Origin: a virus
Lineage: Duplodnaviria; Heunggongvirae; Uroviricota; Caudoviricetes
DNA: 64,000 nt
IMG/VR virus record: IMGVR_UViG_3300029544_000210
Coordinates: 20,406 to 84,405 of that record
Reading direction: 5' to 3' (one strand)
A program made the translations under genes and the position numbers. The notes under the pieces were generated by a model. That model searched no databases and was not told the origin of the DNA. It saw only the letters and a program-made list of their open reading frames with translations. Shown here one piece after another: positions 13,251 through 40,930 of the stretch (position 1 is its first letter; every line of letters begins with the position of its first letter).

Positions 13251-13778
13251 TCATTCCATATATAACTCCTCAAATACAATTTGTTTAGGTAATAATTTAT
13301 AGCACCAATAAGCACTCATAAAAGTGATTTTATTTTGAATAACACCATTATTTAAAAATTTCATTCTCTTGTTAAAAGATAATATTTGTAATTCTTTATC
13401 TTTAAACAAATGATATGGAGCTGCATCATTCCACCAAGTATTGGGTGCAATAAGCGCAAATGGTTTGCCAAAACTTAATGCTCTTTCAAAGATTTTTCTT
13501 TTATTAGTAAATGGTGGATTAGACACAATACAATCCCAGTTCTCATCAGGTTCATATGTATAGAAGTCTTGTCCATTATCTATATGAGTAGCGATTACTT
13601 TGTGACCTGCTTCTCTAATTTGTTTAACAAATTCACTATTTTCCATGTCAAATGGACACCAAACCGTTGCTTCTTTTGGTATATATTTTACTATCGGTTT
13701 AACACCGTAATTTGGTGTCATACATTCGTCATTGTTTCCTTTGCTATATAATACTTCTTGACTATTAATCTTTGTCAT
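13251..13778 (-). CDS. phage-type DNA N6-adenine methyltransferase (small Dam-like, NPPF)
   Basis: ECMTP near the N-terminus and IVSNPPF. 175 aa. Confidence 0.55.
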   Translation of the reverse strand: MTKINSQEVLYSKGNNDECMTPNYGVKPIVKYIPKEATVWCPFDMENSEFVKQIREAGHKVIATHIDNGQDFYTYEPDENWDCIVSNPPFTNKRKIFERALSFGKPFALIAPNTWWNDAAPYHLFKDKELQILSFNKRMKFLNNGVIQNKITFMSAYWCYKLLPKQIVFEELYME

Positions 13779-13926
13779 TTTTCAAAAAGGTACAACGTTG
13801 TTTTATTCTTGCAAGAAACCTATACCTTTCTTAATATTTTTTGTAATTACATTTATATATTCTTTTAATTCTTGTTGTCTCCAACCTCTGAAGCCTTGAT
13901 TTTAGGGAATTTCAGAGATTGAGATT

Positions 13927-14757
13927 TTAATAATTTGTGATTAATACCTCACAATCGGCACTCTTGTCCTTTTTCTGATAATTGCAGTTGCTATAATCAT
14001 GCTTTAAATAATGAACTATGTATTTATCTTTCCATTTATCAAGTAATGGATTGTCATATTTGAGATTATTACTTAATGCAAACTTAACACCTTTATCATT
14101 CAACATATCAAGAGTCTCTAGTAATTTATTCTCCATTTCTTCTGTCCAGCCACCGTTTTCATTGTATGTAGCAACAGAATTGAAATATGGTGGATCTGCA
14201 TAAACAAAATCGCCTTCCGTAAAATCGGAAAAATCAAATCTCTCAAATGGAATATTTAAGAAACTACAGTCTATTTCATTTAGCCGCTTATGAAAATCTA
14301 TAAATTTTTGTCTAAGAGTGGGATTAAAACTTGACCTATCTTTACCAAAAGGCATATTGTATTCACCTTTGGAATTGAATCTGATTTGATTATTGAACGC
14401 ATAACATAAAAGCGTATAGAATTTAATTGGGTCTTTAATACCTGTGTTATATTCTTCTCTAAACAGTAAATATCCTTCTTTGTTTTCTTTAGTTAATCCA
14501 TACTTATTAATATATGAATCAATCTTATGTAATACTTCTTCAATATTTGAACCTTGTAAATATCTTAGAAAACCAACTACCTGTTCACATATATCATTGT
14601 AGATAATGTGATCAGCCTTTACATTAATACCAACATTAAAACCTCCACCAAATAAATCCACGAAAGTATTTATCTTATCTGGAAACATCGGTATAATGAT
14701 TGGTAGTAACTTATACTTGCCACCTACATAATTAAGTGGACTCTTTATATTACTCAA
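13927..14757 (-). CDS. Dam-family (D12 class) DNA N6-adenine methyltransferase
   Basis: NYVGGK, DLFGGGFNV (motif I), YADPPY (motif IV). Confidence 0.8.
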   Translation of the reverse strand: MSNIKSPLNYVGGKYKLLPIIIPMFPDKINTFVDLFGGGFNVGINVKADHIIYNDICEQVVGFLRYLQGSNIEEVLHKIDSYINKYGLTKENKEGYLLFREEYNTGIKDPIKFYTLLCYAFNNQIRFNSKGEYNMPFGKDRSSFNPTLRQKFIDFHKRLNEIDCSFLNIPFERFDFSDFTEGDFVYADPPYFNSVATYNENGGWTEEMENKLLETLDMLNDKGVKFALSNNLKYDNPLLDKWKDKYIVHYLKHDYSNCNYQKKDKSADCEVLITNY

Positions 14758-16113: not shown

Positions 16114-16857
16114 TTAGAAATTTGGATAGAATGAAGGCATAAGCTGAAGCTTGAATAAATTCTTCTCATGCATTGAATCAATCTTCGCTTTTACATCCTC
16201 ATCATTAATCTCTCCTGTTCTGATATACCTATCAAGAGTGTCATAAGTGAATCCAAGGTTGTCCTCGTCAGTCTTTCCACAAAGACCGTCAGTAGGTGTC
16301 TTATCTACTAACTCAGATGGAAGTCCTAATTCACGACCAATCGCCTTAACTTCCGAAACTGTGAGCTGCGATAGTGGACTGAAATCACCTGCTGCGTCTC
16401 CATATCTGGTAGCATATCCTACCCAATCCTCTGAAAGATTACATGTATTTGCAACACGACCATTGATTGTCTGAGATACTGCATAAAGTGTAGCCATTCT
16501 GATACGAGCAGGAAGGTTTGTTGTTGTTTGTATAGATAAATTTTCGTCTAATGATGTTTTAATTTCATATTCAGCAACATTAACAATTGTTCCAATTGGA
16601 ATGATCGTTCGAGGAATATCTAAAAAGTTGCATAGCATATGACTATATTCGATATCAGATTGTCTTCCCTGCGGCATAAGTACACCAAACACTCTATCTT
16701 TCCCAAGAGCTTCTACACACAGAGCAGCTACAACGCTTGAGTCCTTACCTCCTGAAATTCCAACTACTGCATTACAATCCTTACCATTCTTATCAAACCA
16801 ATCTCTGATCCACTGTACTACTTCGTTCTTTACTGTCTTTACATCAAAATTACTCAT
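16114..16857 (-). CDS. nadE: NH3-dependent NAD+ synthetase
   Basis: PP-loop SGGKDS. TRYGDAAGDFSP and TPTDGL...DEDNLGFTYDTLD line up with the E. coli NadE motifs TKYGDGGTDINP and APTADLEDD...LGVTYDNIDD. Confidence 0.85.
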   Translation of the reverse strand: MSNFDVKTVKNEVVQWIRDWFDKNGKDCNAVVGISGGKDSSVVAALCVEALGKDRVFGVLMPQGRQSDIEYSHMLCNFLDIPRTIIPIGTIVNVAEYEIKTSLDENLSIQTTTNLPARIRMATLYAVSQTINGRVANTCNLSEDWVGYATRYGDAAGDFSPLSQLTVSEVKAIGRELGLPSELVDKTPTDGLCGKTDEDNLGFTYDTLDRYIRTGEINDEDVKAKIDSMHEKNLFKLQLMPSFYPNF

Positions 16858-17296
16858 GTTTTATCTCTCCTTTTTCAATCTTCTCAATCAATGTAAGTAA
16901 TTCATTGTATACCTGAATTAAACCGCCTCTGTCATCAATATAAACATTTGCATATATTTTTCTACCTGCAAAAGCTACAGATGCGTCACAATTGATACCT
17001 CTATACTTGATATTGTTGTCCTTTAGATACTGCTCAATCATTCCGTATTTATCTTCACCATTCCCAGTAAAAATAATTATCTCTGAATAATTCTCCCATC
17101 TTTGTAAAAGATTAATGACATTCTCATATGTCCTACCCTTCTTATGGAAATCATAAATCGTATCATCGAAATCTACACAAAAGATAAGCCTGCCATATTT
17201 CTTAAATTCTTCCTCTAATCTATTGTAGGAATTATTGGCTTGAAGATAAAAATCCATATTACTTTCCTCCATACATTCTGTTCCTAATGTCCTCAA
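16850..17296 (-). CDS. HAD-superfamily phosphatase-like protein
   Basis: DxDxT motif CVDFDDTIYDF near the N-terminus. Confidence 0.5.
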   Translation of the reverse strand: MRTLGTECMEESNMDFYLQANNSYNRLEEEFKKYGRLIFCVDFDDTIYDFHKKGRTYENVINLLQRWENYSEIIIFTGNGEDKYGMIEQYLKDNNIKYRGINCDASVAFAGRKIYANVYIDDRGGLIQVYNELLTLIEKIEKGEIKHE

Positions 17297-18761
17297 ATGT
17301 ATCCTCTCTTACTAATTCTCCATTCTTGAATACAGTTGTAAGCAAACTATCTTCATTCATATCGAGTAACTGATCCTGACACTTCAGTTCTCCATCTTCT
17401 TCATATACTTTGCAACACCCCTTATGAGATTTCTTTAAATGGCTTGTATCAGTCTTCGGATCTTTGAAGATCATAAGCCTCTTACCATCAATAACTCCAT
17501 AAGTAGCCTTCATTGCAATTCCAAAAGTATCTCTTGTAACAACAATCATCTTTCCATTCTCGACAATAGCTGTAAAACAAAATGCACCTACACCATAAGC
17601 AATGTTATTAGCTGCAAATCCACGCCTTTCTAACTCTCTCCAAATAGTCTCTACATTAGAAAGAGTACATCCGTCACCATAGATAATACCAATATGAGGA
17701 TCTAACACCTTATAACCCTTACCGTTGATAGAACCACCAAAGATATCCCATAATCTTTCTACTGTCTTAACTGAAATCTCTACAATATCACCACTGTCAG
17801 GACGAACAAGCAACTTGCCATTGTGATTCATAATCTCTTCCTTACACTGTGGAAGAATATTGTTTACCATATTCCAATAATCATAGGTATCTGAAACCAT
17901 ACTAAATGAAGTATTTGGATATAATTCTGTAAGTAATCTCTTAACGAATGTAATCTCATCACCATCAATTGAGTAATTTGCTCCCATTACGGAATGCTCT
18001 GTTGATACTGCACCAATTCCAATACCACTATTCTTACAATCAGCATTGTAATATTTATCAATATATGTAATGGCAGGAATAGTTGAAGTCTTATTGAAAG
18101 ATAATAACCATGAAGCAGAACATCTTGTAGCTTCGTCCATACAAGACATACCTCTCATACCAAAATCGGCACAAGCCATATTGCCAGGTAAACCGTCTGT
18201 TGTTTTGTTATACCAATAATCTGCAATCTCACGATACATATGACCAATAGTTGCGTGACAGCAAGGCTTCCATAATTCAACCTGAAGGATACACTCAATC
18301 CACTGAACAAGCCATGCAAATTTGTCATCTGTATTGGTAATTTCAATACAAGGAACTCCCATTGGTACAAGTGTTCCCTCTGGTAAAGCTCTAATTTTAA
18401 GTGGCAGATAACCAAGTCTGTGAAGTTCTACAATCTTCTCTAAGTCGTAATTATCTCTGCCAATCTGCACATCCATTGAATCTGTATAAAGAGATAACAT
18501 CTCATTCTCTGATAATTCAAAGAAATTCTTCTGGAAATATCCCATTAGATATTCCTTAATAAAAGCCTGTAATCCGAAGAAAACCATATGATTCTGATTT
18601 TCCAACATTGATTTACGAGGCACCCAATATGAGACTAACTTAGTTAATCCCTTTGGGTACATACGATCATGACACTGCTTATAAGTATCACTAAGTAATA
18701 AAGCCATTGTGTTATCCATAATTTTAAACCTCCATAACTGTAATCTTTTCATGACTACCAT
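17259..18761 (-). CDS. nicotinamide phosphoribosyltransferase family (NAMPT; Namat-like in the NARP1 context)
   Basis: 500 aa. Matches the human NAMPT layout throughout: DTYK, ALPEGTLVP, DFGMRG, VRPDSGD, IIYGDG, and C-terminal LLTTVFKNGELVREDTFEDIRNRM. Confidence 0.85.
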   Translation of the reverse strand: MVVMKRLQLWRFKIMDNTMALLLSDTYKQCHDRMYPKGLTKLVSYWVPRKSMLENQNHMVFFGLQAFIKEYLMGYFQKNFFELSENEMLSLYTDSMDVQIGRDNYDLEKIVELHRLGYLPLKIRALPEGTLVPMGVPCIEITNTDDKFAWLVQWIECILQVELWKPCCHATIGHMYREIADYWYNKTTDGLPGNMACADFGMRGMSCMDEATRCSASWLLSFNKTSTIPAITYIDKYYNADCKNSGIGIGAVSTEHSVMGANYSIDGDEITFVKRLLTELYPNTSFSMVSDTYDYWNMVNNILPQCKEEIMNHNGKLLVRPDSGDIVEISVKTVERLWDIFGGSINGKGYKVLDPHIGIIYGDGCTLSNVETIWRELERRGFAANNIAYGVGAFCFTAIVENGKMIVVTRDTFGIAMKATYGVIDGKRLMIFKDPKTDTSHLKKSHKGCCKVYEEDGELKCQDQLLDMNEDSLLTTVFKNGELVREDTFEDIRNRMYGGK

Positions 18762-19560
18762 TAAACAAACTGTTTGTAGTAAATAATCTGTTCACTGTAT
18801 TATTCTCCAAAGACTTGATCAACGTTCCTTTTTCTTTATCAAGAATTGAATTCTCTGTATGTGTTGCATACGCATAAATCTCAGTTACACCATGTTTCTT
18901 TAATTCTTCTGCGCTATAATAAAGTGAACCGCCATATGCGATAATATCATCAATCATTAACACAGCTTTGTCCTTCAAATCAATACCATTTGTTATAATG
19001 TCTAATCCAAGGATTTTGCCAGTCTTCCAATCTCTTTTCTTTTCACCATAACAATATGGTAACTCAGGGAATAAATCTGAATATCTCTTAGCTGCACCTG
19101 CGTCTGGGAAATAAAGTACAAGATTTCTCATGCCAATCTTTGAAATAGCTTTATCAACATACTCTTTTGGATTTTCTTTTACACAATTATTGAGTAATGC
19201 AGTAGAAACATCGCTATGAGCATCTAAAACATAAACTGATGAAAATCCTAACCAATTGATAAAATCGCAAAAATACTTCAATGTGAATACTTCATCATCA
19301 TTTTTTACTCTATCCATTCGTGCATTAGGAATATATGGAAGATATAAATAATAATCCACATTAGTAAAAAATCTTTCAAGATGTTTCCTTACTAACATCA
19401 GATAAAACATCTCATCGTTACTCTCATAAATCCATTCAATCCAAATGCAAGGAGAGCCATCATAAGTGTCTTCCTCAATGTTGTTTGTATCAATATTTAC
19501 TCTTGGTGTTCCATCTGGGAACTTGTTGATTGCTACAATTTCACCATTAATTTTAATCAT
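18724..19560 (-). CDS. ribose-phosphate pyrophosphokinase homolog (Prs-like; candidate ADPR-PP synthetase Adps)
   Basis: PRPP-binding loop VLMIDDIIAYGGSL. Shorter than cellular Prs (278 aa). Overlaps the NAMPT-like gene by 38 nt. Confidence 0.7.
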   Translation of the reverse strand: MIKINGEIVAINKFPDGTPRVNIDTNNIEEDTYDGSPCIWIEWIYESNDEMFYLMLVRKHLERFFTNVDYYLYLPYIPNARMDRVKNDDEVFTLKYFCDFINWLGFSSVYVLDAHSDVSTALLNNCVKENPKEYVDKAISKIGMRNLVLYFPDAGAAKRYSDLFPELPYCYGEKKRDWKTGKILGLDIITNGIDLKDKAVLMIDDIIAYGGSLYYSAEELKKHGVTEIYAYATHTENSILDKEKGTLIKSLENNTVNRLFTTNSLFNGSHEKITVMEV

Positions 19561-19563
19561 ATT

Positions 19564-20076
19564 CTACTCTCCAATCACGTTAATCTGACACATCTTCATT
19601 GTCTCTAATGCAGCCTTATGCGTCTCAGGTGTAACACCTGCACAGCAACTTGCATCCACTGTAATATCAATATTAGGATAATTTGCTCTAATCATAAGTG
19701 CATTTGACACTACACAAATGTCTGTACAAAGACCACAAACTTCTACTTCTGTAAAATCAAAATCATCCCAATGTGTCCATCCGAAAGTCGGCTTATCAAT
19801 AACTACGTCATTCTCAATATCAAAATCTAACTTATCTGAAATCTGCCATCCGATTGTATTTTTTACACAATGGACAACTGGGAGATGCTTTCCTTCATAT
19901 GTTTCTAAATAATTATTTGGGTGTGTATCTCTTGTAAAAATTACACTATCACCATTTTCTCTGTACTCCTTGATTTTCTTTGCCACATTAAGTACAATAC
20001 TCTGTGCTTCATTTGTGCCAAGTGAGCCATCAATAAAGTCATTCTGCATATCAATTACAATTAGTGTTTTACTCAT
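19564..20076 (-). CDS. isochorismatase-family hydrolase, PncA-like nicotinamidase
   Basis: VIDMQNDF (catalytic Asp) and CGLCTDICV (catalytic Cys). Confidence 0.7.
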   Translation of the reverse strand: MSKTLIVIDMQNDFIDGSLGTNEAQSIVLNVAKKIKEYRENGDSVIFTRDTHPNNYLETYEGKHLPVVHCVKNTIGWQISDKLDFDIENDVVIDKPTFGWTHWDDFDFTEVEVCGLCTDICVVSNALMIRANYPNIDITVDASCCAGVTPETHKAALETMKMCQINVIGE

Positions 20077-22068: not shown

Positions 22069-22815
22069 CTAAATCTCAAACAACTTCTCTACAGCTTTCT
22101 CACCTGTAACTCTATCTGACTTCTGTAACACTTTGCGTTCTTTCTGCCAGATACATTTAAAATCATCAGGCATATTATATTCACTTATCAACACTATATT
22201 ATTTTCTGAAAGTTTACGAAGAAAATCGTAGAATTCGCTATAGTCGATTGACTGTTTAGAATACTGTTTTGTATTTTTATAAGGTGGATCGAAGTAAAAG
22301 AGGCAGTTCTTATAATCTGCAAAGTCTTTGTAATCACAACATCTAAATTCAATATCATTTAAATCAGGAATTTGTGTTCTAAAATTCTTCAGTCTTTCAT
22401 TATAAATACTTCTACCACCCTTAGAATCTCTGCCATATCCACCATCAAAATATCTGCCACCATAAGATGCACAATATCCAATAAGTGCTATATACTCTTT
22501 TGAATACTTATGTGTTCCAAGTTTTCTATCTTCTCTCACATCGGCATAATGTTCAAATGTACATACATCTGGTGCAATAGATAAATCATTATCAGACTGA
22601 GCATATTTCAATAAAGCAATTAGTTCTTCATTAATGTCAGCCCCTATCTTCTTATCACATTTAATCTTATCAATTAAATTCGCTCCACCAACCATAGGTT
22701 CTATGTAAGTTTTAATATTATTGTCATCAATATACTTCTGAATAATTGGCACTAAAAATTTTGCCAATCTATTTTTACTTCCTTGATATACCATTCCATT
22801 ACCAGAAAGTGACAT
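22069..22815 (-). CDS. Dam-family DNA N6-adenine methyltransferase
   Basis: YQGSKNRL, EPMVGGANL (motif I), YFDPPY (motif IV). Paralog of 28735..29460. Confidence 0.75.
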   Translation of the reverse strand: MSLSGNGMVYQGSKNRLAKFLVPIIQKYIDDNNIKTYIEPMVGGANLIDKIKCDKKIGADINEELIALLKYAQSDNDLSIAPDVCTFEHYADVREDRKLGTHKYSKEYIALIGYCASYGGRYFDGGYGRDSKGGRSIYNERLKNFRTQIPDLNDIEFRCCDYKDFADYKNCLFYFDPPYKNTKQYSKQSIDYSEFYDFLRKLSENNIVLISEYNMPDDFKCIWQKERKVLQKSDRVTGEKAVEKLFEI

Positions 22816-22860
22816 GTCCTTAGTAGCTACCTAACTTTTTCCTTTCTGTTTTAATATTTT

Positions 22861-23685
22861 CTACTTCACATATAAACTTTCATACACAATACTATCATTT
22901 GATTTACCAATAGTACGCTTAAAGCTGCTATTACCACTAAGTAAATATTCGTGTCGTGTATATACATCTTCTGGAACATTCCATGTATTGTCTATATCCC
23001 CACTCTTACCATCGAATGATAAAGCATACTTGCAAGGTAAACTCCTCAAATAATTCCAAAACTTCTCATAATCAATTGTTCCATAATACATACCCTTTGT
23101 ATTGGCATAAGGTGGATCAAGATACAAGAAGTCGTTATCTGTTGGGTTAATATCTTCATAAGAACAACTGATAAACTCTACATTATTTTTCTTCAGCATA
23201 TGACTCCACTCAAAAATAATCTTTTCAAAAGTTTCAGGAATAATACCATTTCTTGTTACATGAAAAGAATTATTAAATTCACCATCACGATTATATCTTG
23301 GCATACCATTAGTAGTAGTTCTCATAATGAACATAAAATCTAATGGATTATGTTCTTTATTGTATCGTTCTCTTACACTTGCAAAATATTCTTTTTTACG
23401 TTGTTTGTCATCATCAACATTTAACTCATTCCAGAGTTTCTTATAATAAAAATAAACTTCTAATGGATTATTGATAATCTCTTTCCATAAATCAATTAAC
23501 CCGCTATTCAAATCACTACATACATAATGATTAACTTTGATGTCGCTATCTAATAATCTCCTTAATACAGACGCTCCACCACAAAACGGTTCATAATATG
23601 TATCAATTTCTTTTGGAAAGAATGTCAGTATCTTTTCTGCCTGACTTCTTTTACTTCCACTCCATTTAATTACTGGTTCGTACAT
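22861..23685 (-). CDS. Dam-family DNA N6-adenine methyltransferase
   Basis: IKWSGSKRS, EPFCGGASV, LYLDPPY. Confidence 0.8.
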   Translation of the reverse strand: MYEPVIKWSGSKRSQAEKILTFFPKEIDTYYEPFCGGASVLRRLLDSDIKVNHYVCSDLNSGLIDLWKEIINNPLEVYFYYKKLWNELNVDDDKQRKKEYFASVRERYNKEHNPLDFMFIMRTTTNGMPRYNRDGEFNNSFHVTRNGIIPETFEKIIFEWSHMLKKNNVEFISCSYEDINPTDNDFLYLDPPYANTKGMYYGTIDYEKFWNYLRSLPCKYALSFDGKSGDIDNTWNVPEDVYTRHEYLLSGNSSFKRTIGKSNDSIVYESLYVK

Positions 23686-24186
23686 TTAATCTACTCAGAG
23701 CGAAATTTCTTTAAGGCTGCCACTCACTCCTTTCGTATTTTGTTCACATATATATTTTCTATTTATTCAACAAATCCAAGAATAATTTTTGCAATACACT
23801 TTGCATTATGAGAATCCATATCTTGAATAATCGCTTTTGCAAGATTGATATTATGATATTCTATAATTTCAATCTCTTCGTCTGTTGGATTATTACGATC
23901 TTCAATCGCTGAGTTAAACTTCTGACAAGTTGATATAATATTTTCAAGCATATTTTTCACCTCGCTAACTTCAAATGAAAGATTTCTTTCAATGTATTAT
24001 TTGAATTCTATCTTATTTCTTTTTAATACCTTAACTGCCTTGTCATAATCAGTTTCAGCTACTTTGATGTTTTTCATCTTGGTAGGCTTTGGTTTTATCC
24101 AATAGCGACATTCTGTAATATCTTCGTCATACCACATCAAACCACCTTCACAATATTTATGATACTGGCAGTCATTGTTACCACAT

Positions 24187-25041
24187 CTACTCATTTATAT
24201 ATTCTCTCACTCTCTTATTTCCAACCTCAAAAATTTCCTTATCTTTCTCAAAACATATGTAATTCCTATTTGTATTCATAGCTGCAATCGCAGTTGTACA
24301 ACTTCCTGCACACGAATCAAGAACCAAATCACCTGGATTTGTGTATGTCTTGATAAAATACTCACACGCTTCAACAGGCTTTTGGCACTGATGTAAGCTA
24401 CTTTTCTGAGTATCCCATTTAAACTGCAAAACATCTCTTGGATATCTTTGTGTACTACCACCACCTGAAATACCAATCTTTGTAGCACCATAACAGTTAC
24501 CATCTGTTGTATGTTTTGTATAAGAATGAACAGGCGTATGTCCTTCTGTCATTTGTGGATTGTAAGTAGGGAGTTTCTTATAGAAAATCAAGACATTTTC
24601 GTGTGCCTTCATAGGCATTTTCTTAGCGTTTAGATGACCAGTTGCTTTGGTCTTTTCGATAATCCATTCATAGCGATATAGCTTTTCATTACTACAAGCG
24701 AGCCTCTTATCAAATGGTGACTGCGCCCATAATGCAATACAACCATTATCTTTGATAATTCGATTGTAGTGAGTCCATAAACCATCTTTTTTGTTCTCAT
24801 AAAACCAATCTCTTGTATATTCAAGACTGCTATCTATTACTTGAGCTAACTCGAACAAATCTGTTTCATAAAAATATTGACCTGATAATTCCACATAATC
24901 ATTTAACGGCATTTCACATTCCCAAGAATTATTAGTCGTATTATAAGGCAGATCCGTGAAGATGAAATCGACTGACTTATCATCAATCTTTTTCATACCT
25001 TCAAGACAGTCTTCGTTGTATATTTTGTTAATCTCTAACAT
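24187..25041 (-). CDS. beta-class N6/N4 DNA methyltransferase (pfam N6_N4_Mtase-like)
   Basis: Motif IV-like FTDLPYN precedes motif I VLDSCAGSCTT, which is the beta-class circular permutation. Confidence 0.65.
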   Translation of the reverse strand: MLEINKIYNEDCLEGMKKIDDKSVDFIFTDLPYNTTNNSWECEMPLNDYVELSGQYFYETDLFELAQVIDSSLEYTRDWFYENKKDGLWTHYNRIIKDNGCIALWAQSPFDKRLACSNEKLYRYEWIIEKTKATGHLNAKKMPMKAHENVLIFYKKLPTYNPQMTEGHTPVHSYTKHTTDGNCYGATKIGISGGGSTQRYPRDVLQFKWDTQKSSLHQCQKPVEACEYFIKTYTNPGDLVLDSCAGSCTTAIAAMNTNRNYICFEKDKEIFEVGNKRVREYINE

Positions 25042-28734: not shown

Positions 28735-29460
28735 TTACTTGGAATTTTTATTTTTATACATAAACAGCTTTTCTCTTCGAAAATCCTTAATGTTATTACA
28801 TTCTCTATTGCTGTCAAATGTAATCTTAACTTGTTTCTCCCAAATGCAATCAAAGTCATCTGGCATTGAATATTCACTTATAATGACAACATTATCTTTA
28901 GACATTTCTCTACACCATTGATAAAATTGTTCATATGGAAATTCACCTGTTTTGTATTTGGTTGTATTTTTATACGGTGGATCACAATATATTACATACC
29001 CATGTAAATTAGAATAATCTAAAAATGAAGCTGTTCTAAAATGGATATCTTTAAGATTTGGAGCTTGCTTCATGCATGATTTGTAAGAATAAATATCTCC
29101 CCGATGTTTAGCATCATCACGCTTTGCATAACCACCAAACCACTTTGCTCCAAAACTAAGTTCATATCCTATATACCCTGTTATAAAATCAGAATATTTG
29201 TCAGGATTATTTTTTACATCAATATAAAATTCTTTCGATACTTCTTTTGGTGGTTCAATTCCTTGCTGCAAACCAATAAGTACAGAAATTACATATTTAT
29301 CAATATCGCTTCCTATCTTATTGTCACATTCAATTTTATCAATAATATTTGCACCACCTACGAATGGTTCTAAATAACCATTGCATCCCTTGTCTATATA
29401 ATTCTGTATAATCGGTACAATTTGTTTTGATAACCGATTTTTGCTTCCCATGTAAATCAT
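28735..29460 (-). CDS. Dam-family DNA N6-adenine methyltransferase
   Basis: GSKNRL, EPFVGGANI, YCDPPY. Paralog of 22069..22815. Confidence 0.75.
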   Translation of the reverse strand: MIYMGSKNRLSKQIVPIIQNYIDKGCNGYLEPFVGGANIIDKIECDNKIGSDIDKYVISVLIGLQQGIEPPKEVSKEFYIDVKNNPDKYSDFITGYIGYELSFGAKWFGGYAKRDDAKHRGDIYSYKSCMKQAPNLKDIHFRTASFLDYSNLHGYVIYCDPPYKNTTKYKTGEFPYEQFYQWCREMSKDNVVIISEYSMPDDFDCIWEKQVKITFDSNRECNNIKDFRREKLFMYKNKNSK

Positions 29461-29517
29461 TATGTATCAGGAGTAAACGCTGCGTTTTCGGTATACCAAA
29501 CCTCTTACTCCTTTCTT

Positions 29518-30441
29518 TTATTCTCTTAACCCACTCAAAATCCATTCAATAGTAGGTTCATTCCATCCATTGCCCATCAAACTACATCTTTTTGAGTATG
29601 ATAACCAACGATTGTTAAGCTGAATTTTTGTAAAATTATCAGGCAATCCCTGTAATCTTTCATATTCAACTTCTGTAAGTTTTCGTGGTCTACCACTATC
29701 TAATACTTTCTTTTCGTGATATCCACCATTGATACAAGTCAATGTGCAGCACTTAAAATCTGGATTATAAATTCTTCTATTCATTTCCATAGAATTAACT
29801 TTTAACTCTGCGCATACACGTTTGTTCATATCCAAGATTTCAAAATCTTTCTTATAGAAATATTTCTCATCTACACTATTCTCCATAATATCTTTCAAAA
29901 CTAATGGAGATTCATCAGGTAATTTACCTAATGGTATGTTTGTCCAATAATATCTTTCACGATTTTGAGACGAAAATCTTCCTGAATCAATCAAAATAGG
30001 TTCTACACCAATACATTCTGTCATTGTCTTCAGATCTTCGTCACAACTTGGTATTACATTCTCAAACATGAAATATTTGGGCTGAATTGCCCTAAGACAC
30101 TCAATTGCTTTAAAGAAAATTCCTGACTTACCATCAAGACCATTATTGACCTCTTTGCTTTCAATTCGTACTCTTGAAATTGACTGGCAACAAGTTCCTG
30201 CCAACAGTAAATCAAATCCTTTGAACTGTTCAAAATCCGCTTCATATAAATCGCCATGATGTACCACAAACGGAAAATGGTACTGAGAAACTGCTATGGC
30301 TTCTGGCAAAATTTCATATGTATGATATTCTCTTATAGGTATTCCGAGCTGCTGTAACGCATACAATCCTGTTTCAACGCCACCACATAAACTTAACACT
30401 CGTAGCCCCTTGAGAATTATTTTTTCATTATTCTCTGTCAA
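29518..30441 (-). CDS. DNA (cytosine-5)-methyltransferase
   Basis: Motif I LSLCGGVETG, catalytic motif IV GTCCQSIS (PCQ-type Cys), and ENV (motif VI). Confidence 0.7.
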   Translation of the reverse strand: MTENNEKIILKGLRVLSLCGGVETGLYALQQLGIPIREYHTYEILPEAIAVSQYHFPFVVHHGDLYEADFEQFKGFDLLLAGTCCQSISRVRIESKEVNNGLDGKSGIFFKAIECLRAIQPKYFMFENVIPSCDEDLKTMTECIGVEPILIDSGRFSSQNRERYYWTNIPLGKLPDESPLVLKDIMENSVDEKYFYKKDFEILDMNKRVCAELKVNSMEMNRRIYNPDFKCCTLTCINGGYHEKKVLDSGRPRKLTEVEYERLQGLPDNFTKIQLNNRWLSYSKRCSLMGNGWNEPTIEWILSGLRE

Positions 30442-30951: not shown

Positions 30952-31404
30952 CTAAAATGCAGTACCACTCTCACCCTGATTAATTTCTTTACACTTCTGA
31001 TCACACTCTTCCAATGTCTTAAACAAAGAAGTCTCTCCTCTATTTCTTACATTTACATATTCTCCAACAGAATTAACTTTATATTTAATTGTGGTTACAT
31101 CATTCCAAATACTAGCCACAATTCTTCTAATTTTAACTTTATGAGGTACAACCACTGTCTGTTTACATACAATCTTCCCTGTTGTATTACACTGTTTACA
31201 TGGAATTTCATATCCGTTGTAAAGAATCTTCTTTGTTCCTTTACATATTGGACAAATAATTTCTACATTTTCTCTTGCGTATGTATAACATTCTTCCCCA
31301 ATTTCAAACTTATTGTCTATTGTTTTCATTTTAAAATACCTCCTAATATAATAAATAATGTGCCATACGAGGTTTGAACTCGTAACATCTTGATTAAAAG
31401 TCAA
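30952..31404 (-). CDS. zinc-ribbon hypothetical protein
   Basis: CPICKG...CKQCNTTGKIVCKQ. Confidence 0.4.
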   Translation of the reverse strand: MTFNQDVTSSNLVWHIIYYIRRYFKMKTIDNKFEIGEECYTYARENVEIICPICKGTKKILYNGYEIPCKQCNTTGKIVCKQTVVVPHKVKIRRIVASIWNDVTTIKYKVNSVGEYVNVRNRGETSLFKTLEECDQKCKEINQGESGTAF

Positions 31405-31431
31405 GTGCTCTACCTATTGAGATAATGGCAC
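31359..31431 (-). tRNA. tRNA-Lys (anticodon UUU)
   Basis: Minus-strand cloverleaf. Acceptor GTGCCAT/ATGGCAC, anticodon stem CTTGA/TCAAG with loop CTTTTAA, T-arm ACGAG-TTCAAAC-CTCGT. The D/anticodon region is close to E. coli tRNA-Lys. No encoded CCA. Confidence 0.8.
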
Positions 31432-31435
31432 ACAG

Positions 31436-31507
31436 CTAGGATGGTGGGATTCGAACCACGAATGTCAGAATCAAAATCTGATGTGTTGACCACTTCACCA
31501 CATCCCA
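31436..31507 (-). tRNA. tRNA-Gln (anticodon UUG), with an atypical T-arm
   Basis: Minus strand. Acceptor TGGGATG/CATCCTA (one G-U pair), D-arm GTGA...CAC, anticodon stem TCAGA/TCTGA with loop TTTTGAT, T-loop TTCGAAT. The T-stem pairs imperfectly (only 4 bp, or an 8-nt loop). Confidence 0.55.
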
Positions 31508-32581: not shown

Positions 32582-32694
32582 TTAACTATTCTCCTTTTCG
32601 TATTATATTTTTCTTCCATTAGCTTGATAATCTCAACATTTCTGTAGTATATATTGAATAATCATTTTACTGAGTAAAATGTTGTCTTAACCGT

Positions 32695-32796
32695 GTTTTG
32701 TATCTATGTTAAATTAAACATATCTAAAACAAAGAACATAGTATATTGTTGGTTAAAGTAGTTTTGTATCTATGTTAAATTAAACATATCTAAAAC
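32695..32796. CRISPR. mini CRISPR-like array 1: two 36-nt direct repeats (GTTTTGTATCTATGTTAAATTAAACATATCTAAAAC) flanking one 30-nt spacer
   Basis: Exact 36-nt repeat at 32695..32730 and 32761..32796. Spacer 32731..32760 is AAAGAACATAGTATATTGTTGGTTAAAGTA. Lies directly downstream of the Cas12/TnpB-like gene's 3' end. Confidence 0.75.
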
Positions 32797-32900
32797 CTCA
32801 AATCACACAGATACTATTAACATAGATTCTAACGAGTGCCATTAATTAACAACCTCGCCATTCAGGTGCAAAATCACCTGCAATCTTACGATTGATTAAG
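32797..32900 (-). ncRNA. candidate tracrRNA/omegaRNA-like scaffold 1 (conserved in all three cassettes; contains an anti-repeat)
   Basis: Begins CTCAAA right after the repeat. Contains TTAACATAGAT, complementary to ATCTATGTTAA inside the repeat. Shares CTCAAA...ACATAGATT...GAGTGC...AAAAT...GCAAT...GATTGAT blocks with 34479..34560. Sits where a TnpB omegaRNA would be, abutting the gene's 3' end. Confidence 0.55.
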
Positions 32901-32906
32901 TAGCAC

Positions 32907-34295
32907 TTAAGCTACTTTATTATTCTCTGAACCATTCTTACTTTGTTCATATTTTTCAGAGATATCATAATATTCTCTTGCTTCCTGTTTACTCTTTTCA
33001 GTAACTTGTCCACTTCCCATCCAAAGAGTTGACATTGCAATGTTTCTGGCAGCATTGAAGTCTGCATTAAAACCAGTTTTTTCATATTTTTTATGACTAT
33101 CACAATTCTCATTTGCACATTCAAATACTGACTGTGACTTTCTCTGACCAAACTCCCAATTACCACATACACTACAAATCTGTGATGTATAACAAGGATT
33201 GATTTTTCTTACTTCTATTCCGTATTTAGCTGCTTTATATGTAATATAATCTTGAAGTTTATAATAACTCCAATTTCTCAGGATAAAATCACTTGTATCA
33301 TATCCTGTTAAATTCTCAATATTTATGTATTTAGCATTATGTTTTAAAGCAAAATCAACGACTCTTTTACTTATCATATGACAATATGTTTCAACAAAAT
33401 GTACTTCTGCTTTCTGCAATCTTTCTAATGCTTTCAGTTTCTTTGCTCTACCATGACCACCAGAAGTATTTCGTAATGACTTCTGTAATCTTTTTCTCTG
33501 AGCTTGCATTTTAGTTCTTATTCTTAGAAAATCATCTGCATTTCCAATTGCCAATCTCTCGTAAAGATTATTGTTTAAAGCACACATAGCAGGAACTGCA
33601 ATGCCTAAATCAACACCTACTACTATATTTTCATCCAGCTCTCTAAGTTGTTTTGGAATAGATATTGAGAGATTTAAAATGATTGACTTACCATCAATTT
33701 CAATGCTACTTCCTTGCACTTTATAATTCTCTTCTAATATATTCTGAATAACAGATCTTAACTCTAATGACCTATGCGGATTGCCAAACACAACCTTAAA
33801 TACAATTTTATTAACCCACTTGACATATACCGCCAAATCAGAATCATTAATCTTGTCTAAAAAATCATGATATGTTTCATACTCATGATAAAAAGTTAAG
33901 TTTCTGCCTCTTGTAATAAGTGGATTAGTTCTCTTATAATTTGTTACAGTTCGTTCACCTTTAGCCAATCCATTCTTTAAAGCTGTGCTGAAATCCTGCT
34001 TGACTTTCTGAGTAACGGCTGATGGAGTGTCTACACCAGTTGCAAAATCAATATCTTTTAATATGATATTAGAGTTTGTCATTATTTCTTTCTGTCTTGC
34101 CTTAAATTCTTCATTCTTAATATCACGATTATATTTGTAATATTCACTCATAAGCTGTCCCATAAGCAGGTTACAAGCCTGATATTGAGCATACTGACCA
34201 TTTCTAATAAAGTTATATACTCTATTGATTTCATCCTTATCTCCTACTGGAAATAATTTAATTTTTCTACAAATTGTCATTCTATTGTTTCCCAT
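32907..34295 (-). CDS. TnpB / Cas12-like RuvC nuclease (462 aa), candidate compact type V effector
   Basis: RuvC-I VGVDLGIAVP; RuvC-II KYINIENLTGYD; zinc finger CYTSQICSVCG...C..ENC; RuvC-III FNADFNAARNIAM (the DxNAAxNI signature of TnpB/Cas12). No TnpA (Y1 HuH) ORF nearby. Confidence 0.85.
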   Translation of the reverse strand: MGNNRMTICRKIKLFPVGDKDEINRVYNFIRNGQYAQYQACNLLMGQLMSEYYKYNRDIKNEEFKARQKEIMTNSNIILKDIDFATGVDTPSAVTQKVKQDFSTALKNGLAKGERTVTNYKRTNPLITRGRNLTFYHEYETYHDFLDKINDSDLAVYVKWVNKIVFKVVFGNPHRSLELRSVIQNILEENYKVQGSSIEIDGKSIILNLSISIPKQLRELDENIVVGVDLGIAVPAMCALNNNLYERLAIGNADDFLRIRTKMQAQRKRLQKSLRNTSGGHGRAKKLKALERLQKAEVHFVETYCHMISKRVVDFALKHNAKYINIENLTGYDTSDFILRNWSYYKLQDYITYKAAKYGIEVRKINPCYTSQICSVCGNWEFGQRKSQSVFECANENCDSHKKYEKTGFNADFNAARNIAMSTLWMGSGQVTEKSKQEAREYYDISEKYEQSKNGSENNKVA

Positions 34296-34376
34296 AATTT
34301 GTAAATCTCCTTTTATATTTTTTGTAATTTTAAATATCTCTAAAATTAAACAGCTTACAAGTACAACAACGCAAGT

Positions 34377-34478
34377 GTTTTATACCTATGTAATTTTATA
34401 TGTATCTAAAACTTCTATATCTTCAACAATTTCAACAGGTTTGTTTTATACCTATGTAATTTTATATGTATCTAAAAC
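34377..34478. CRISPR. mini CRISPR-like array 2: two 36-nt repeats (GTTTTATACCTATGTAATTTTATATGTATCTAAAAC) flanking one 30-nt spacer
   Basis: Exact repeats at 34377..34412 and 34443..34478. Spacer 34413..34442 is TTCTATATCTTCAACAATTTCAACAGGTTT. The repeat shares GTTTT...ATCTAAAAC termini with array 1. Confidence 0.75.
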
Positions 34479-34560
34479 CTCAAACTTATTACATAGATTT
34501 TCATGAGTTGCATTGCACTCACGATTCGGCAGTAAAATCTACCGCAATAGAATTGATTTT
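34479..34560 (-). ncRNA. candidate tracrRNA/omegaRNA-like scaffold 2
   Basis: CTCAAACTTATTACATAGATTTTCATGAGTTGCATTGCACTCACGATTCGGCAGTAAAATCTACCGCAATAGAATTGAT. Contains the anti-repeat ATTACATAG (complementary to the repeat's CTATGTAAT) and a short hairpin TGAGT..ACTCA. Confidence 0.5.
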
Positions 34561-34585
34561 AATTTCATTTATATATTCTTTTAAT

Positions 34586-34741
34586 GAGATGTAATTTTAT
34601 ATACTTCTAAAAATTTATAACTTGTGTCGATACATATTATGTAATTTTGCTAGTATGTAACTATACTTCCAAAACAACTGAAACATCTCCTCTCTGTTGC
34701 CAGATATTTTGTTAGTATGTAATTTCATATACTTCCAAAAC
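34586..34741. CRISPR. degenerate mini-array 3: three imperfect ~25-35-nt repeats (..GTAATTT(T)ATATACTTCCAAAAC) with ~27- and 31-nt spacers
   Basis: Repeat-like copies at 34586..34613, 34641..34675 and 34707..34741. Spacers 34614..34640 and 34676..34706 (AACTGAAACATCTCCTCTCTGTTGCCAGATA). Confidence 0.5.
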
Positions 34742-34840
34742 TTCAAATTACATATAAATTACATACTTTTCAGTGAGTGATATAATCCTCACTATTCGGA
34801 CTCAAAATAGCCCGTAGTCAAAAGACTAATTGTTATAGGA
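34742..34840 (-). ncRNA. candidate tracrRNA/omegaRNA-like scaffold 3
   Basis: TTCAAATTACATATAAATTACATACTTTTCAGTGAGTGATATAATCCTCACTATTCGGACTCAAAATAGCCCGTAGTC... AAATTACATACT is an exact 12-nt complement of the array-3 repeat core. Hairpin GTGAG..CTCAC. Ends with ATTCGG..CAAAAT..G blocks shared with scaffold 2. Confidence 0.5.
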
Positions 34841-35507
34841 TAAACTGGCTTGAATTAGCCAAATAGATTTGTTATAATAGAACATATATAGTTTATCCTA
34901 TATTTTATTCTCTGAGCAGATTGTTTAGGTCGGTAAACTTGTGCAATCTGTTCTCTTCTATTTAATATCTTCCCAATCGGTTTCATCCTTATCATTAGCA
35001 AAATTCATGAATAAGTGAATATATAATTCAATAATTCGCTCCTTTGATAAGGCTTGTAACTGTTTTCTAAGTTCATTTCGCTTATTTGTATCTTTATCCA
35101 TTTTATTATTCTCCTGTATTTTAGCATCTTACTAACAAGCTACTTATATCATCAGCAAGTACTTCTCTGTCAGTAACAATCCATTGACACCTAAAATCTC
35201 TATCTGCACATAACGAAGTAAAATCAGCATAACTTTGTATCTTATCTGGCTTTGCTATTGCTCTATAACACTGTTTTCTTCTTTCACATGTTTTGCTTGT
35301 ACACATTGTAATATCTGGCATAGTTATTTTTCTCCCTTATACTCTTTTAAAATATCCTGTAAATTGCTATAGTGTGTATACATAAATTGACCATACCCAT
35401 TATCTTTTTTGAATCCGTCTAATTGCATATATAAACAAATATCAGACAAGGTTTCCATTATTTCAATTTGCATTTTCTTTTTTAATACAATACTTTTTAA
35501 CAATGTT

Positions 35508-39127: not shown

Positions 39128-39478
39128 CTATATCATAGCCAGACTTATTTTCATCGCTTCCATAACACGAACATTATCATCATTAGATAAATTACCAATC
39201 TTAAACTTTAGTCTATCTTTATCTATTGTGGTAATTTGTTCAAGAGCTACAACAGAATCGTGTTTTAATCCGTTGAATTTATCTTTATGTAACTCAACGT
39301 GAGTTGGTAATTCCCTTTTAGACTTCGTAGTTATAATGGCAATAATAGTGGTAGGGCTAAATTTATTTCCAATGTCATTCTGAAGTATTAACACTGGTCT
39401 TCTACCACTCTGTTCAGAACCCTGAGAATCATATCTACCTACATCTGCGAAGTATATTTCACCACGTTTTATGTCCAT
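39128..39478 (-). CDS. MazF/PemK-family mRNA interferase toxin
   Basis: IKRGEIYFADVG...GSEQSGRRPVLILQND...PTTIIAIITT...DSVVALEQITTIDKDRL. Start taken at MDIKRGE, which is preceded by AAGGAGG. Confidence 0.8.
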   Translation of the reverse strand: MDIKRGEIYFADVGRYDSQGSEQSGRRPVLILQNDIGNKFSPTTIIAIITTKSKRELPTHVELHKDKFNGLKHDSVVALEQITTIDKDRLKFKIGNLSNDDNVRVMEAMKISLAMI

Positions 39479-39501
39479 TGCTTTAGCCCTCCTTTCTCTG
39501 T

Positions 39502-39530
39502 TTGTTCCTTTGATATTTTGTATTATATAC
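39502..39530 (-). promoter_or_regulatory. consensus sigma70-type promoter for the mazF-like gene (TTGACA, 17 nt, TATAAT)
   Basis: On the minus strand: TTGACA (39530..39525), a 17-nt spacer, then TATAAT (39507..39502), roughly 25 nt upstream of the SD/ATG. Confidence 0.6.
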
Positions 39531-39626
39531 TTCACTATATATATTGTCAAGTATTATTACAATTATTTTTTATATTTATTTTTTCTTTTATATATGGTAC
39601 TCTATGTATATAGGAGGATTGCATTT

Positions 39627-39913: not shown

Positions 39914-40930
39914 TCACATATTATTTAGTACATTTTTCATTCCCACTGCTCCATTTGCATAATTTTTGACAGTTGTTTTTACACTACTATGCCCAAGCTG
40001 CTGTTGTACGAATGCAAGATTTCCATTTTGATTCATTACAGTAGCATAATAATGTCTCATCATATGTGCAGTAATACCATTTCCGTAATTTTCAAATATC
40101 TGCTTAATATTTTTCTCTGTTGTACGTGTTCCGTTTTTATTAATAAAAACTGCTTCTGTATCAATAATATTATCCAATGTCAACCTATACTCTAACCACT
40201 CTTTCAATGCTTTTAAGGCTGATCCGCTAAGATATACGGTTCTATTTTGCATTTCTCTGTACACACCTTTGCCAAGAATAGTAATGTATGGCATTTCTTC
40301 CTTCAAATGTAAATCAGATAAATCTAAGCCAGCAAGCTCTGACTCTCTTATACCAGTGCCCCTTAATACCCTAAAGATAGCAATATTCCTATTTTTTACT
40401 GCAATATCCTTTTTCCACATTATCTTCTCTTCCATGTCATTAAGCTGCTTTTCTGTTGGAAGTTTTTTTATTAAGTTGTTTCCAGATGGGATTCCCTTAT
40501 ATTTAATCATTTTGTAAAAATCTTCTATATTACTATAAACTTCTCTTAACAAACACTCTCTGTATGAATAAATATCCTGTATAAAACTTTTAATGATATT
40601 TTTCCTTGTTTCTGTTGTGGTTGGTGACATTCCATTTGTTTCCTTATATCTAAGATATGAACTAATATTTTGTGGTCTTAGGTCATTAAAATCAGAAACT
40701 TCTATTTCAGAAATTGATTTCTTATTAATAATATTACTTTCAATCAACCACTGTAAAAAATCTTTAATTGCCACTAAATAATTTAGCGCTCCGTTTTTGC
40801 TTTCCAACTCATTTAAGTAATCTCTTAAAAATTGTGGTGCATTTAACTCATCTAATTTTTTATTAAGCTTCTCCGCATTTTTATTCTGCACTTCTATTTT
40901 ATAACACATTATCATCAACCTACCTTTCAT
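39914..40930 (-). CDS. tyrosine recombinase / phage integrase family
   Basis: C-terminal HMMRHYYATVM...LGHSSVKTTVKNY catalytic box (R..H-R-H..Y). Confidence 0.8.
   Translation of the reverse strand: MKGRLMIMCYKIEVQNKNAEKLNKKLDELNAPQFLRDYLNELESKNGALNYLVAIKDFLQWLIESNIINKKSISEIEVSDFNDLRPQNISSYLRYKETNGMSPTTTETRKNIIKSFIQDIYSYRECLLREVYSNIEDFYKMIKYKGIPSGNNLIKKLPTEKQLNDMEEKIMWKKDIAVKNRNIAIFRVLRGTGIRESELAGLDLSDLHLKEEMPYITILGKGVYREMQNRTVYLSGSALKALKEWLEYRLTLDNIIDTEAVFINKNGTRTTEKNIKQIFENYGNGITAHMMRHYYATVMNQNGNLAFVQQQLGHSSVKTTVKNYANGAVGMKNVLNNM

Follow-up and report, generated by a model that had tools for sequence, protein, structure and literature searches.

What do the spacers of a virus-borne CRISPR (clustered regularly interspaced short palindromic repeat) locus recognize? 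The question is raised by a 64,000-nucleotide stretch of DNA (positions 20,406 to 84,405 of the IMG/VR virus record IMGVR_UViG_3300029544_000210, Caudoviricetes; hereafter the window), in which arrays of only one or two spacers lie on both sides of a gene for the compact nuclease Cas12f. An earlier note on this DNA had listed three of the spacers (S1, S2, and S3), with competing phages, plasmids, and host defence genes as candidate targets. Our answer, to which we assign a probability of about 0.72, is that the spacers serve as guides in a self-contained type V-F (Cas12f) system that removes or excludes competing mobile DNA in a shared host cell. The evidence begins with S1, for which a target was found on a small plasmid of the human gut.

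Spacer S1 matches a 2.5-kb Rep_3 plasmid

Using its first 22 nt as the query, we found no match for S1 in IMG/VR and five human-gut contigs in a metagenome collection (L040-L044), in all of which (5/5) the match extends to 30/30 nt. None of the five protospacers lies between repeats, and their 5' flank reads ...ATTCCA. The contigs have a segment of ~2.4 kb in common, and a 77-nt terminal overlap closes one of them (L042, 2,610 bp) into a circle of 2,533 bp with 27% G+C. The sole credible gene of this plasmid encodes a Rep_3 initiator (Rep3_N plus Rep3_C) and is preceded by five iterons; 509 relatives of the Rep protein were detected at E<=1e-20, on contigs of 1-19 kb. The idea that plasmids might be among the targets is borne out by S1, whose perfect match lies on a small Rep_3 plasmid beside a protospacer-adjacent motif (PAM).

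The S1 protospacer falls within non-coding plasmid DNA, on the margin of a module of ~340 nt that is 71-79% identical to unannotated DNA of small plasmids from Waltera intestinalis, Mediterraneibacter gnavus, Clostridium perfringens, and Butyricicoccus. Compared with Rfam, the module gave a sub-threshold match to SpF66_sRNA (35-37 bits; gathering score 42). Together with a 39-nt palindromic hairpin, the ~340-nt module is common to small gut-Clostridia plasmids (L042, ~1927-2269 and 2396-2434; L045, 3001-3343).

Spacers of related genomes find CCA-flanked targets on plasmids and a phage-like element

Targets were also found for spacers at the same locus in related genomes (sister spacers). The 2.5-kb plasmid is matched at 30/30 by sp0 (from L001), by sp19 (from L013 and L015), the first 20 nt of which also occur in a Waltera plasmid, and by sp2 (from L002), in this case within rep. 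Spacer sp4 (from L003) matches Rep_3 plasmids of 11-19 kb at 28/29, and its variant sp26 (from L018) matches the 2.5-kb plasmid at 24/30. Competing phages, the other mobile targets that had been envisaged, are represented by one sister spacer: sp21 (from L013-L017) matches at 30/30 a small open reading frame (ORF) on phage-like IMG/VR contigs of 42-49 kb that carry a sigma factor and an HNH endonuclease. Variants of this last site exist, with the flank TCA in place of CCA in L034 (~3768-3797) and three extra nucleotides (TAC) within the PAM-distal part in L035 (3174-3203); they are possible escape variants of the targeted phage-like element. No relative of contig L037 was found among GenBank phages.

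A conserved flanking motif, which the earlier note had suggested looking for beside any match, is present throughout: on the strand with the sense of the guide, CCA precedes every one of the six protospacers that match perfectly or nearly so (5' flanks ATTCCA, CGTCCA, GTACCA, ATTCCA, AGTCCA, and ATCCCA), and their 3' flanks have no common motif. CCA occurs at 33 positions of the plasmid counted over both strands (0.65%), which puts the chance of finding it at four of four protospacers at ~2e-9. The 5' PAM that distinguishes type V-F was thus found at six independent protospacers. RhCas12f1, a close relative of the effector described below, uses 5'-CCD, with CCA as the best variant (PMC10090079), and the title of the paper on structure 8HR5 presents CnCas12f1 as a "C-rich PAM" Cas12f. 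Because CCA is the preferred PAM of RhCas12f1, the PAM, the strand, and the effector are mutually consistent.

Of the five spacers directed at plasmids, four (S1, sp0, sp19, and sp4/sp26) fall in or beside the ~340-nt module and its hairpin, not in rep. This distribution would suit a scenario in which the plasmids, or the module they have in common, are specific antagonists or parasites of the phage (satellite-like, or carriers of anti-phage functions) and Cas12f serves as a counter-defence, as in ICP1 against PLE. The conservation of the module on several gut-Clostridia plasmids at the identities given above, its occurrence beside an IS256-like transposase (L040), and its sub-threshold likeness to a small RNA point the same way. 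However, the 2.5-kb plasmid has no credible gene besides rep, nothing was found to connect the plasmid with phage packaging or defence, and the targeting of conserved sequence may simply mirror the placement of its 33 CCA sites. We consider this scenario quite unlikely.

A compact Cas12f effector lies among three scaffold-fused mini-arrays

The gene that accompanies the arrays encodes a protein matching the Pfam family Cas12f1-like_TNB (E=1.7e-15, 57 bits against a cut-off of 26) and the NCBIfam model guided_TnpB (161 bits). Its matches in the PDB are CnCas12f1 (8HR5, E=8e-88), RhCas12f (9NZP, 2e-81), and AsCas12f (1.5e-39). The RuvC motifs GVDLG (starting at 227), INIENL (324), and NADFNAARN (410) are present with their D/E/D residues, and the zinc-finger cysteines (CxxC pairs) are intact. 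The 462-aa protein therefore has the make-up of a compact type V-F effector (~400-700 aa), with a C-terminal split RuvC domain and a zinc-finger/TNB region. No close homologue was found among GenBank phages.

Each of the three strings listed in the earlier note occurs once in the window (32731-32760, 34413-34442, and 34676-34706) and is enclosed by copies of a 36-nt direct repeat, so that their identification as spacers held. The list was incomplete, as it lacked two older spacers, S2b (34347-34376) and S4 (34614-34643), which precede degenerate terminal repeats. The strand also had to be changed, since the RNAs are read from the minus strand and the guides are the reverse complements of the strings, and S3 was shortened from 31 to 30 nt (34676-34705), the 31st base being the final base of the repeat. 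On the minus strand the order is U3 scaffold-R3-S3-R3b-S4-R3c, then U2 scaffold-R2-S2-R2-S2b-R2c, then cas12f, and finally U1 scaffold-R1-S1-R1. Two of the three modules of the locus lie upstream of cas12f and the third downstream, with all arrays <=600 nt from the gene (Table 1). An array beside the effector, with spacers that vary, is the arrangement of type V-F.

Table 1. Features of the Cas12f locus, with positions in the window
Feature	Position	Strand	Sequence	Remarks
AT-rich hairpin downstream of array 1, possible terminator	32663..32681	-	CATTTTACTCAGTAAAATG	Read from the sequence; the terminator scan did not flag it
Repeat R1b	32695..32730	-		
Spacer S1	32731..32760	-	TACTTTAACCAACAATATACTATGTTCTTT (guide)	Target: 2,533-bp Rep_3 plasmid
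Repeat R1a	32761..32796	-	GTTTTAGATATGTTTAATTTAACATAGATACAAAAC	
Module U1 tracrRNA-like scaffold	32797..32906	-		Stem A, stem B, stem C, anti-repeat; directly after the cas12f stop codon; supported by fold, covariation, pseudoknot
cas12f, type V-F effector of the TnpB family	32907..34295	-		462 aa; profile and structure-database matches
Degenerate terminal repeat R2c	34311..34346	-		Final bases overlap with the beginning of the cas12f ribosome-binding site
Spacer S2b	34347..34376	-	ACTTGCGTTGTTGTACTTGTAAGCTGTTTA (guide)	Old, at the trailer end
Repeat R2b	34377..34412	-		
Spacer S2	34413..34442	-	AAACCTGTTGAAATTGTTGAAGATATAGAA (guide)	
Repeat R2a	34443..34478	-	GTTTTAGATACATATAAAATTACATAGGTATAAAAC	
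Module U2 tracrRNA-like scaffold	34479..34577	-		Supported by fold, pseudoknot, covariation
Degenerate terminal repeat R3c	34578..34613	-		
Spacer S4	34614..34643	-	TACATAATATGTATCGACACAAGTTATAAA	Decaying; 1-2 substitutions among relatives
Degenerate repeat R3b	34644..34675	-		32 nt, with a 4-nt deletion
Spacer S3	34676..34705	-	ATCTGGCAACAGAGAGGAGATGTTTCAGTT (guide)	Old, kept across the clade
Repeat R3a	34706..34741	-	GTTTTGGAAGTATATGAAATTACATACTAACAAAAT	
Module U3 tracrRNA-like scaffold	34742..34850	-		After a terminator-like hairpin at 34862-34845 (terminator scan)

The three scaffolds, which resemble trans-activating CRISPR RNAs (tracrRNAs) and are ~95 nt long, differ in sequence and share a fold composed of stem B with an AUUUUG-type loop, stem C (GUGAG...CUCAC), and an anti-repeat, the pairing partner of the repeat's 3' half. 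A pseudoknot of 5 bp joins the stem B loop to the repeat, the loop being complementary to the five bases that come before the repeat's final base. When equivalent modules from all related loci were compared, loop and repeat were complementary in 36 of 37, in five covarying forms (UUUUG:CAAAA, UUUUA:UAAAA, UUUCG:CGAAA, UUUCA:UGAAA, and CUUUG:CAAAG). Covariation was assessed on a MAFFT alignment of 25 distinct modules, over four helices and 31 pairs. The paired cells amounted to 97.2%, and 20 of the 31 pairs had changed on both sides in a compensatory manner; none of 500 shuffles reached the observed value, and 3' partners slid by 1-3 columns paired at 27-47%. The anti-repeat helix was 95% paired with seven covarying pairs, and the pseudoknot 100% paired with three. 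At the level of sequence, this pattern shows that all three modules are under selection. A tracrRNA with anti-repeat and pseudoknot, as in type V-F, was thereby found in silico, and no Rfam family was detected at the arrays or scaffolds.

A core of stem and pseudoknot is known from the guide RNAs of Cas12f and TnpB (PMC12255294). This covarying core indicates that the minus strand is the one transcribed and that the guide lies at the 3' end. Moreover, since each scaffold directly adjoins the first repeat, transcription of a module can deliver its newest spacer in the form of a natural single-guide RNA. Further modules were seen in two distant relatives, L020 (5602-8488) and L022 (5602-8449), whose Cas12f proteins are 48-51% identical and flanked on both sides by several mini-arrays; five scaffold-preceded modules were extracted from L020 and six from L022, each with its own repeat variant and a matching pseudoknot loop. 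Module duplication seems to be the way in which this clade widens its guide repertoire.

The spacers turn over among near-identical genomes

Spacer content is variable across the 24 related loci, in which we counted 52 distinct spacers, and loci with 95-100% identical Cas12f proteins differ in their spacers. Among ten genomes encoding an identical Cas12f, array 1 is a solitary R1 in six and R1-S1-R1 in four; S1 is present in 4/10 and S2 in 9/10. The differences are exact gains or losses of 66 bp between identical flanks, and three of the ten (L049, L051, and L052) have one extra spacer each, at the scaffold side. At the far ends, beside decayed repeats, S3, S2b, and S4 occur clade-wide with occasional point changes. 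Such polarity is what a functioning CRISPR array displays, the leader here being the scaffold end. A separate case concerns the spacer GTAAAAGGAAAGTGGTCTGATGCTGATCTT, which is found twice in tandem in array 2 of L002 (5723-5818) and once in array 1 of L018 (7536-7565); either spacers duplicate and move between modules with different repeats, or this one was acquired independently.

Because the spacers differ among near-identical genomes, a fixed structural role is excluded. According to the earlier note, a lack of any protospacer and identical spacers in all related genomes would have spoken for such a role; protospacers do exist, and the spacers are not identical among relatives. With an intact Cas12f gene adjacent and variation between related genomes, the spacers have the properties of genuine guides.

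On another account, the repeat-spacer units would be regulatory or decoy RNAs instead of interference guides, either in a CRISPR RNA (crRNA)-like autoregulation of cas12f or as RNA anti-CRISPRs by which a host Cas12f is titrated. Regulatory RNAs that resemble repeats are known, as are anti-CRISPRs of viruses that consist of a single repeat (10.1101/2023.03.03.530964; PMC11656645), some sister genomes have solitary repeats, and the degenerate repeat at 34311-34346 ends at the ribosome-binding site of cas12f. Against this, the spacers are exchanged between genomes, their matches to foreign DNA are perfect and share one PAM, and the element encodes its own catalytically intact effector along with complete scaffolds. 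We hold this explanation to be very improbable, the least likely of the rivals. Independently of it, R2c is continuous with the ribosome-binding site (AAAAGGAG...ATG), array 2 and the cas12f 5' untranslated region forming one unbroken stretch, a continuity that could couple transcription of the array to expression of cas12f or permit crRNA-like autoregulation.

A neutral origin of the spacers deserves more weight. On this account the spacers were copied from abundant DNA in the host cell and are carried passively, so that matches to plasmids say nothing about a role, and whatever function the system has, if any, would be set by other spacers. The small share of spacers with a target is compatible with it (of ~56 distinct family spacers, 6 match plasmids, 1 matches a phage-like contig, and the rest are unmatched), as are the drift of the old spacers S3 and S4 by point mutation beside decayed repeats and the failure to find adaptation genes in the locus. 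Acquisition that respects the PAM would likewise be expected of a neutral Cas1-Cas2-Cas4 process. Nevertheless, five independent spacers from different phage lineages converge on one plasmid family, all plasmid protospacers carry the PAM needed by relatives of the effector, and S1 is found in 4 genomes from different samples. The catalytic motifs and the compensated structure of all three scaffolds also imply selection on function. We therefore regard passive carriage as unlikely and favour guides in active use.

Most other spacers have no target in the collections searched

Searches of GenBank phages (INPHARED) and PLSDB returned nothing significant for the window's four spacers, the 52 pooled family spacers, S2b, S4, and three new spacers. 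Across GenBank phages, PLSDB, the genome collection, and IMG/VR, S2 gave only partial matches of 22-27/30, none with CCA. The longest, to the faecal phage MT835469 (27/30, E=2), was dismissed as chance: it needs an indel, lacks CCA, and lies in a region not homologous to the window. Also rejected were 22-mer matches of S2 to an Acutalibacteraceae metagenome-assembled genome (22/30), a Kordiimonas metagenome-assembled genome (24/30), and the IMG/VR contig L074 (23/30, PAM-distal part only), which end at the seed and lack CCA; we judge them chance matches to a common coding motif. A register-independent 22-mer of S3 matched only itself in IMG/VR, in arrays of related genomes, and the sister spacer sp3 likewise hit only self-arrays there. 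No credible target was obtained for S2 or S3 in GenBank phages, PLSDB, or IMG/VR.

For S2b, and for S4 together with its 27-nt core, GenBank phages and PLSDB gave no match; these were the sole collections scanned for the two spacers besides relatives of the Rep_3 plasmid. Those relatives (~280 kb, 54 loci) contained no match to S2, S2b, S3, or S4. The earlier note had found no full-length match to its spacers within the window, and this was confirmed: no self-target rises above chance in the 64 kb (best 20-21/30, a level equalled by shuffled spacers). Family spacers found no match in DNA of the related genomes either (the 64-kb window plus pieces of 5-13 kb per relative). Host or defence genes, which the earlier note had also named, were not found as targets in the collections searched.

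The carrier is a ~300-kb element classed as viral

The system belongs to a human-gut element of ~294-317 kb that IMG/VR classes as viral. The exact Cas12f protein was present in 109 blocks of a public collection, on contigs of up to ~300 kb; contigs with proteins identical to those of the window reach 294-317 kb, and the 317-kb contig carries another window protein. The 24 related contigs belong to the viral genomes of IMG/VR. The G+C content of the window is 31.5%, with almost every gene on the minus strand; the gene content of the carrier includes many small same-strand ORFs, PHROG matches, an RNA ligase, and tRNAs, with Gp49 and GP17 domains in the flanks. Near the arrays are genes for a Band_7 lipoprotein, two tRNAs, DNA methyltransferases, a sigma-like protein, a MazF toxin, and an integrase, and the readable flanks encode a DnaB-like helicase, DNA polymerase III alpha, a DHH nuclease, ClpP, and toxin-antitoxin genes. 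A huge phage is the likely carrier.

The same inventory lends itself to another interpretation, in which the carrier is a megaplasmid or phage-plasmid and the system serves competition between plasmids, like plasmid-borne type IV and V-F systems. Structural genes were not found in the window and its ~30-kb flanks, where replication, methyltransferase, toxin-antitoxin, and integrase genes and a weak NikA-like match occur instead; type V-F is reported as enriched on plasmids (PMC11656645), and the majority of the identified targets are plasmids. The viral classification of all 24 related contigs and the phage-like gene content listed above speak against a megaplasmid, and the DNA read covers no more than about a third of the element, so that structural genes may be encoded in the remainder. 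We rate this interpretation as improbable to much the same degree as the antagonist scenario.

No cas1, cas2, or cas4 gene was found within ~6 kb on either side of the locus or among the ~30 larger ORFs of the window. An adaptation module is usual in bacterial V-F1 loci and is not required of phage-borne variants; it was not seen in the region examined.

Proposed mechanism

If the spacers are active guides, transcription would proceed along the minus strand, and module U1 would be reached by read-through from cas12f and end at the hairpin at 32663-32681. Cas12f loaded with a guide RNA would recognize double-stranded DNA with 5'-CCA beside the protospacer and cut it through the intact RuvC site. 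Spacer S1 would lead the nuclease to the CCA-flanked non-coding site of the 2,533-bp circular Rep_3 plasmid, and the outcome would be loss of the plasmid, or of a rival phage, from a cell infected or lysogenised by the element. New repeat-spacer units are added at the scaffold side. Because cas1, cas2, and cas4 were not found nearby, acquisition probably draws on host-supplied adaptation proteins, with spacer integration probably carried out in trans by a host Cas1-Cas2(-Cas4), the pattern reported for CRISPR systems of huge phages at large (PMC7162821). We infer interference and in vivo cleavage, the sharing of a host by phage and plasmid, and this route of acquisition. Gut Clostridia harbour relatives of the plasmid module, and the closest solved relatives of the effector come from Clostridia.

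A more far-reaching version would have the huge phage use its duplicated, scaffold-fused guide modules specifically to destroy small cryptic Rep_3 plasmids by way of their common non-coding module, in a plasmid-directed analogue of ICP1 against PLE, as the plasmids or the module parasitise or antagonise the phage, with spacers gained without a phage Cas1-Cas2, by host adaptation proteins hijacked at a scaffold-embedded leader or by another route. As a whole, this version is doubtful.

Several points count against reading the spacers as guides that act on competing mobile DNA. Four of the five window spacers have no target in the collections searched with them. Neither capsid, portal, and tail genes nor a clear terminase gene was found in the ~95 kb read (the window plus ~30-kb flanks), which is about a third of the element. 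That phage and plasmid would meet in one cell is suggested by the spacer match alone, and expression, RNA processing, and cleavage by the system are predicted. High-copy plasmids are favoured as spacer donors, so that plasmid spacers could be a passive record. Finally, three of the five S1 contigs (L040, L041, and L044) join plasmid sequence to chromosomal-looking genes.

At these junctions the plasmid runs into an IS256-like transposase and a hydroxylamine-reductase-like gene (L040, 778-3819), into glycoside-hydrolase genes of ~45% G+C (L041, 1-113 and 2507-9156), or into a FAD/NAD-binding oxidoreductase (L044, 2317-3319). They represent either integrated copies or assembly chimeras.

Comparison with known systems

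By the features examined in the sequence (effector, array, tracrRNA with pseudoknot, and 5' PAM), the system is of type V-F. With the type V-F1 systems of Clostridia (CnCas12f1 and RhCas12f1) it shares a near full-length alignment of the effector with the same RuvC and zinc-finger motifs, the same tracrRNA scaffold, anti-repeat duplex, pseudoknot, and 3' guide, and a C-rich 5' PAM. Those systems lie on bacterial chromosomes and have one array and one tracrRNA, whereas here a ~300-kb phage-like element without cas1, cas2, or cas4 found nearby carries three mini-arrays of 1-2 spacers, each abutting its own diverged, covarying scaffold. The phage Cas12f also lacks an N-terminal segment of ~55 residues relative to CnCas12f1.

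Huge phages are described as carrying V-F variants without Cas1, Cas2, or Cas4, with compact arrays and conserved catalytic residues (PMC7162821), features that recur in the present locus as far as it was examined. The present carrier resembles those phages (Al-Shayeb et al. 2020, PMC7162821) in its size of more than 200 kb, its origin in the human gut, and spacers directed in part at other phages. In the portions of that work compared here, competing phages and host genes are the targets, whereas ours are mostly small Rep_3 plasmids; to that description the present locus adds a documented multi-module, tracrRNA-fused layout and spacer polymorphism among near-identical genomes. Viral mini-arrays of inter-virus conflict likewise have 1-2 spacers, reside on viruses, and are aimed at competing mobile elements, but they copy host repeats, borrow host Cas proteins, and mostly target related viruses (PMC11656645). 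The element studied here has its own effector and tracrRNAs: cas12f and three cognate scaffolds lie on it, which sets it apart from mini-arrays that borrow host Cas proteins.

The type I-F system of ICP1, which acts against PLE in Vibrio cholerae, offers a parallel of a phage CRISPR with active spacer turnover and a small host-resident element as its target (PMC9040626; PMC11656645). As outlined in those sources, ICP1 has a full class 1 system with its own Cas1-Cas2 and a target that is a known anti-phage satellite, whereas we describe a single-protein V-F system with no adaptation genes found nearby and a target plasmid that has no known anti-phage role. With TnpB and its omega/reRNA (IS200/IS605) the system has in common a homologous nuclease, a scaffold contiguous with a 3' guide, and a conserved pseudoknot core; here, in contrast, true repeats flank exchangeable spacers, and the targets are PAM-flanked sites on foreign replicons. 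An IS200/IS605 TnpB transposon was considered and ruled out by the variable spacers between repeats, with a score of 45.6 bits against a cut-off of 425 for NCBIfam IS200_TnpB. No transposon ends were seen, and no tnpA was present among the neighbour genes. The system is distinct from the published descriptions compared, as far as these were covered, in its scaffold-fused arrays of 1-2 spacers, its visible spacer gain, and the predominance of Rep_3 plasmids among identifiable targets.

Other features of the window

The tRNA genes Lys(UUU) and Gln(UUG) are adjacent to each other (31358-31507, minus strand), ~1.2 kb downstream of array 1. A MazF/PemK-type toxin gene (39128-39550; Pfam, 2.5e-30) lies beside a tyrosine integrase gene (39914-40930), both on the minus strand, a pairing suggestive of a lifestyle that is temperate or plasmid-like. 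The 64 kb contain at least nine genes for DNA methyltransferases (9673-10293, 13251-14757, 22069-25041, 28735-30441, and 57439-59073, minus strand); D12-class N6-adenine and C5-cytosine enzymes were assigned by Pfam, one enzyme by PHROGs, and others by DPPY, NPPF, or NPPY motifs only. They probably serve anti-restriction.

A cluster related to nicotinamide adenine dinucleotide (NAD) occupies 16114-20076 on the minus strand. It contains a nicotinamide phosphoribosyltransferase (17259-18761; PHROG 448, E=5e-163), an ORF resembling phosphoribosyl-transferases or phosphoribosyl pyrophosphate synthetases (18724-19560), and, as recognized by eye, an NAD-synthetase-like (16114-16857) and a nicotinamidase/isochorismatase-like gene (19564-20076). 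This cluster resembles the phage NAD+ reconstitution pathways that counter NAD-depleting defences. Past the high-coordinate end of the window, on a 317-kb related contig (L078, 2723-5504), a stretch of ~2.8 kb without a called gene lies at a strand switch and may represent an origin of replication or a region of non-coding RNA.

Implications

The single-guide layout and the duplication of modules bear on how the omega-RNAs of TnpB became split into tracrRNA and crRNA, and the clean gains of spacers without local cas1 or cas2 raise the question of the acquisition route. The 5'-CCA PAM, the three scaffolds backed by covariation, and the 462-aa nuclease also constitute the parts of a compact genome-editing system. 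Phage CRISPR systems are usually discussed as anti-phage or anti-host, and here one window spacer together with four independent sister spacers points at small cryptic plasmids. The locus thus offers a concrete, testable case of conflict between phage and plasmid in the human gut.

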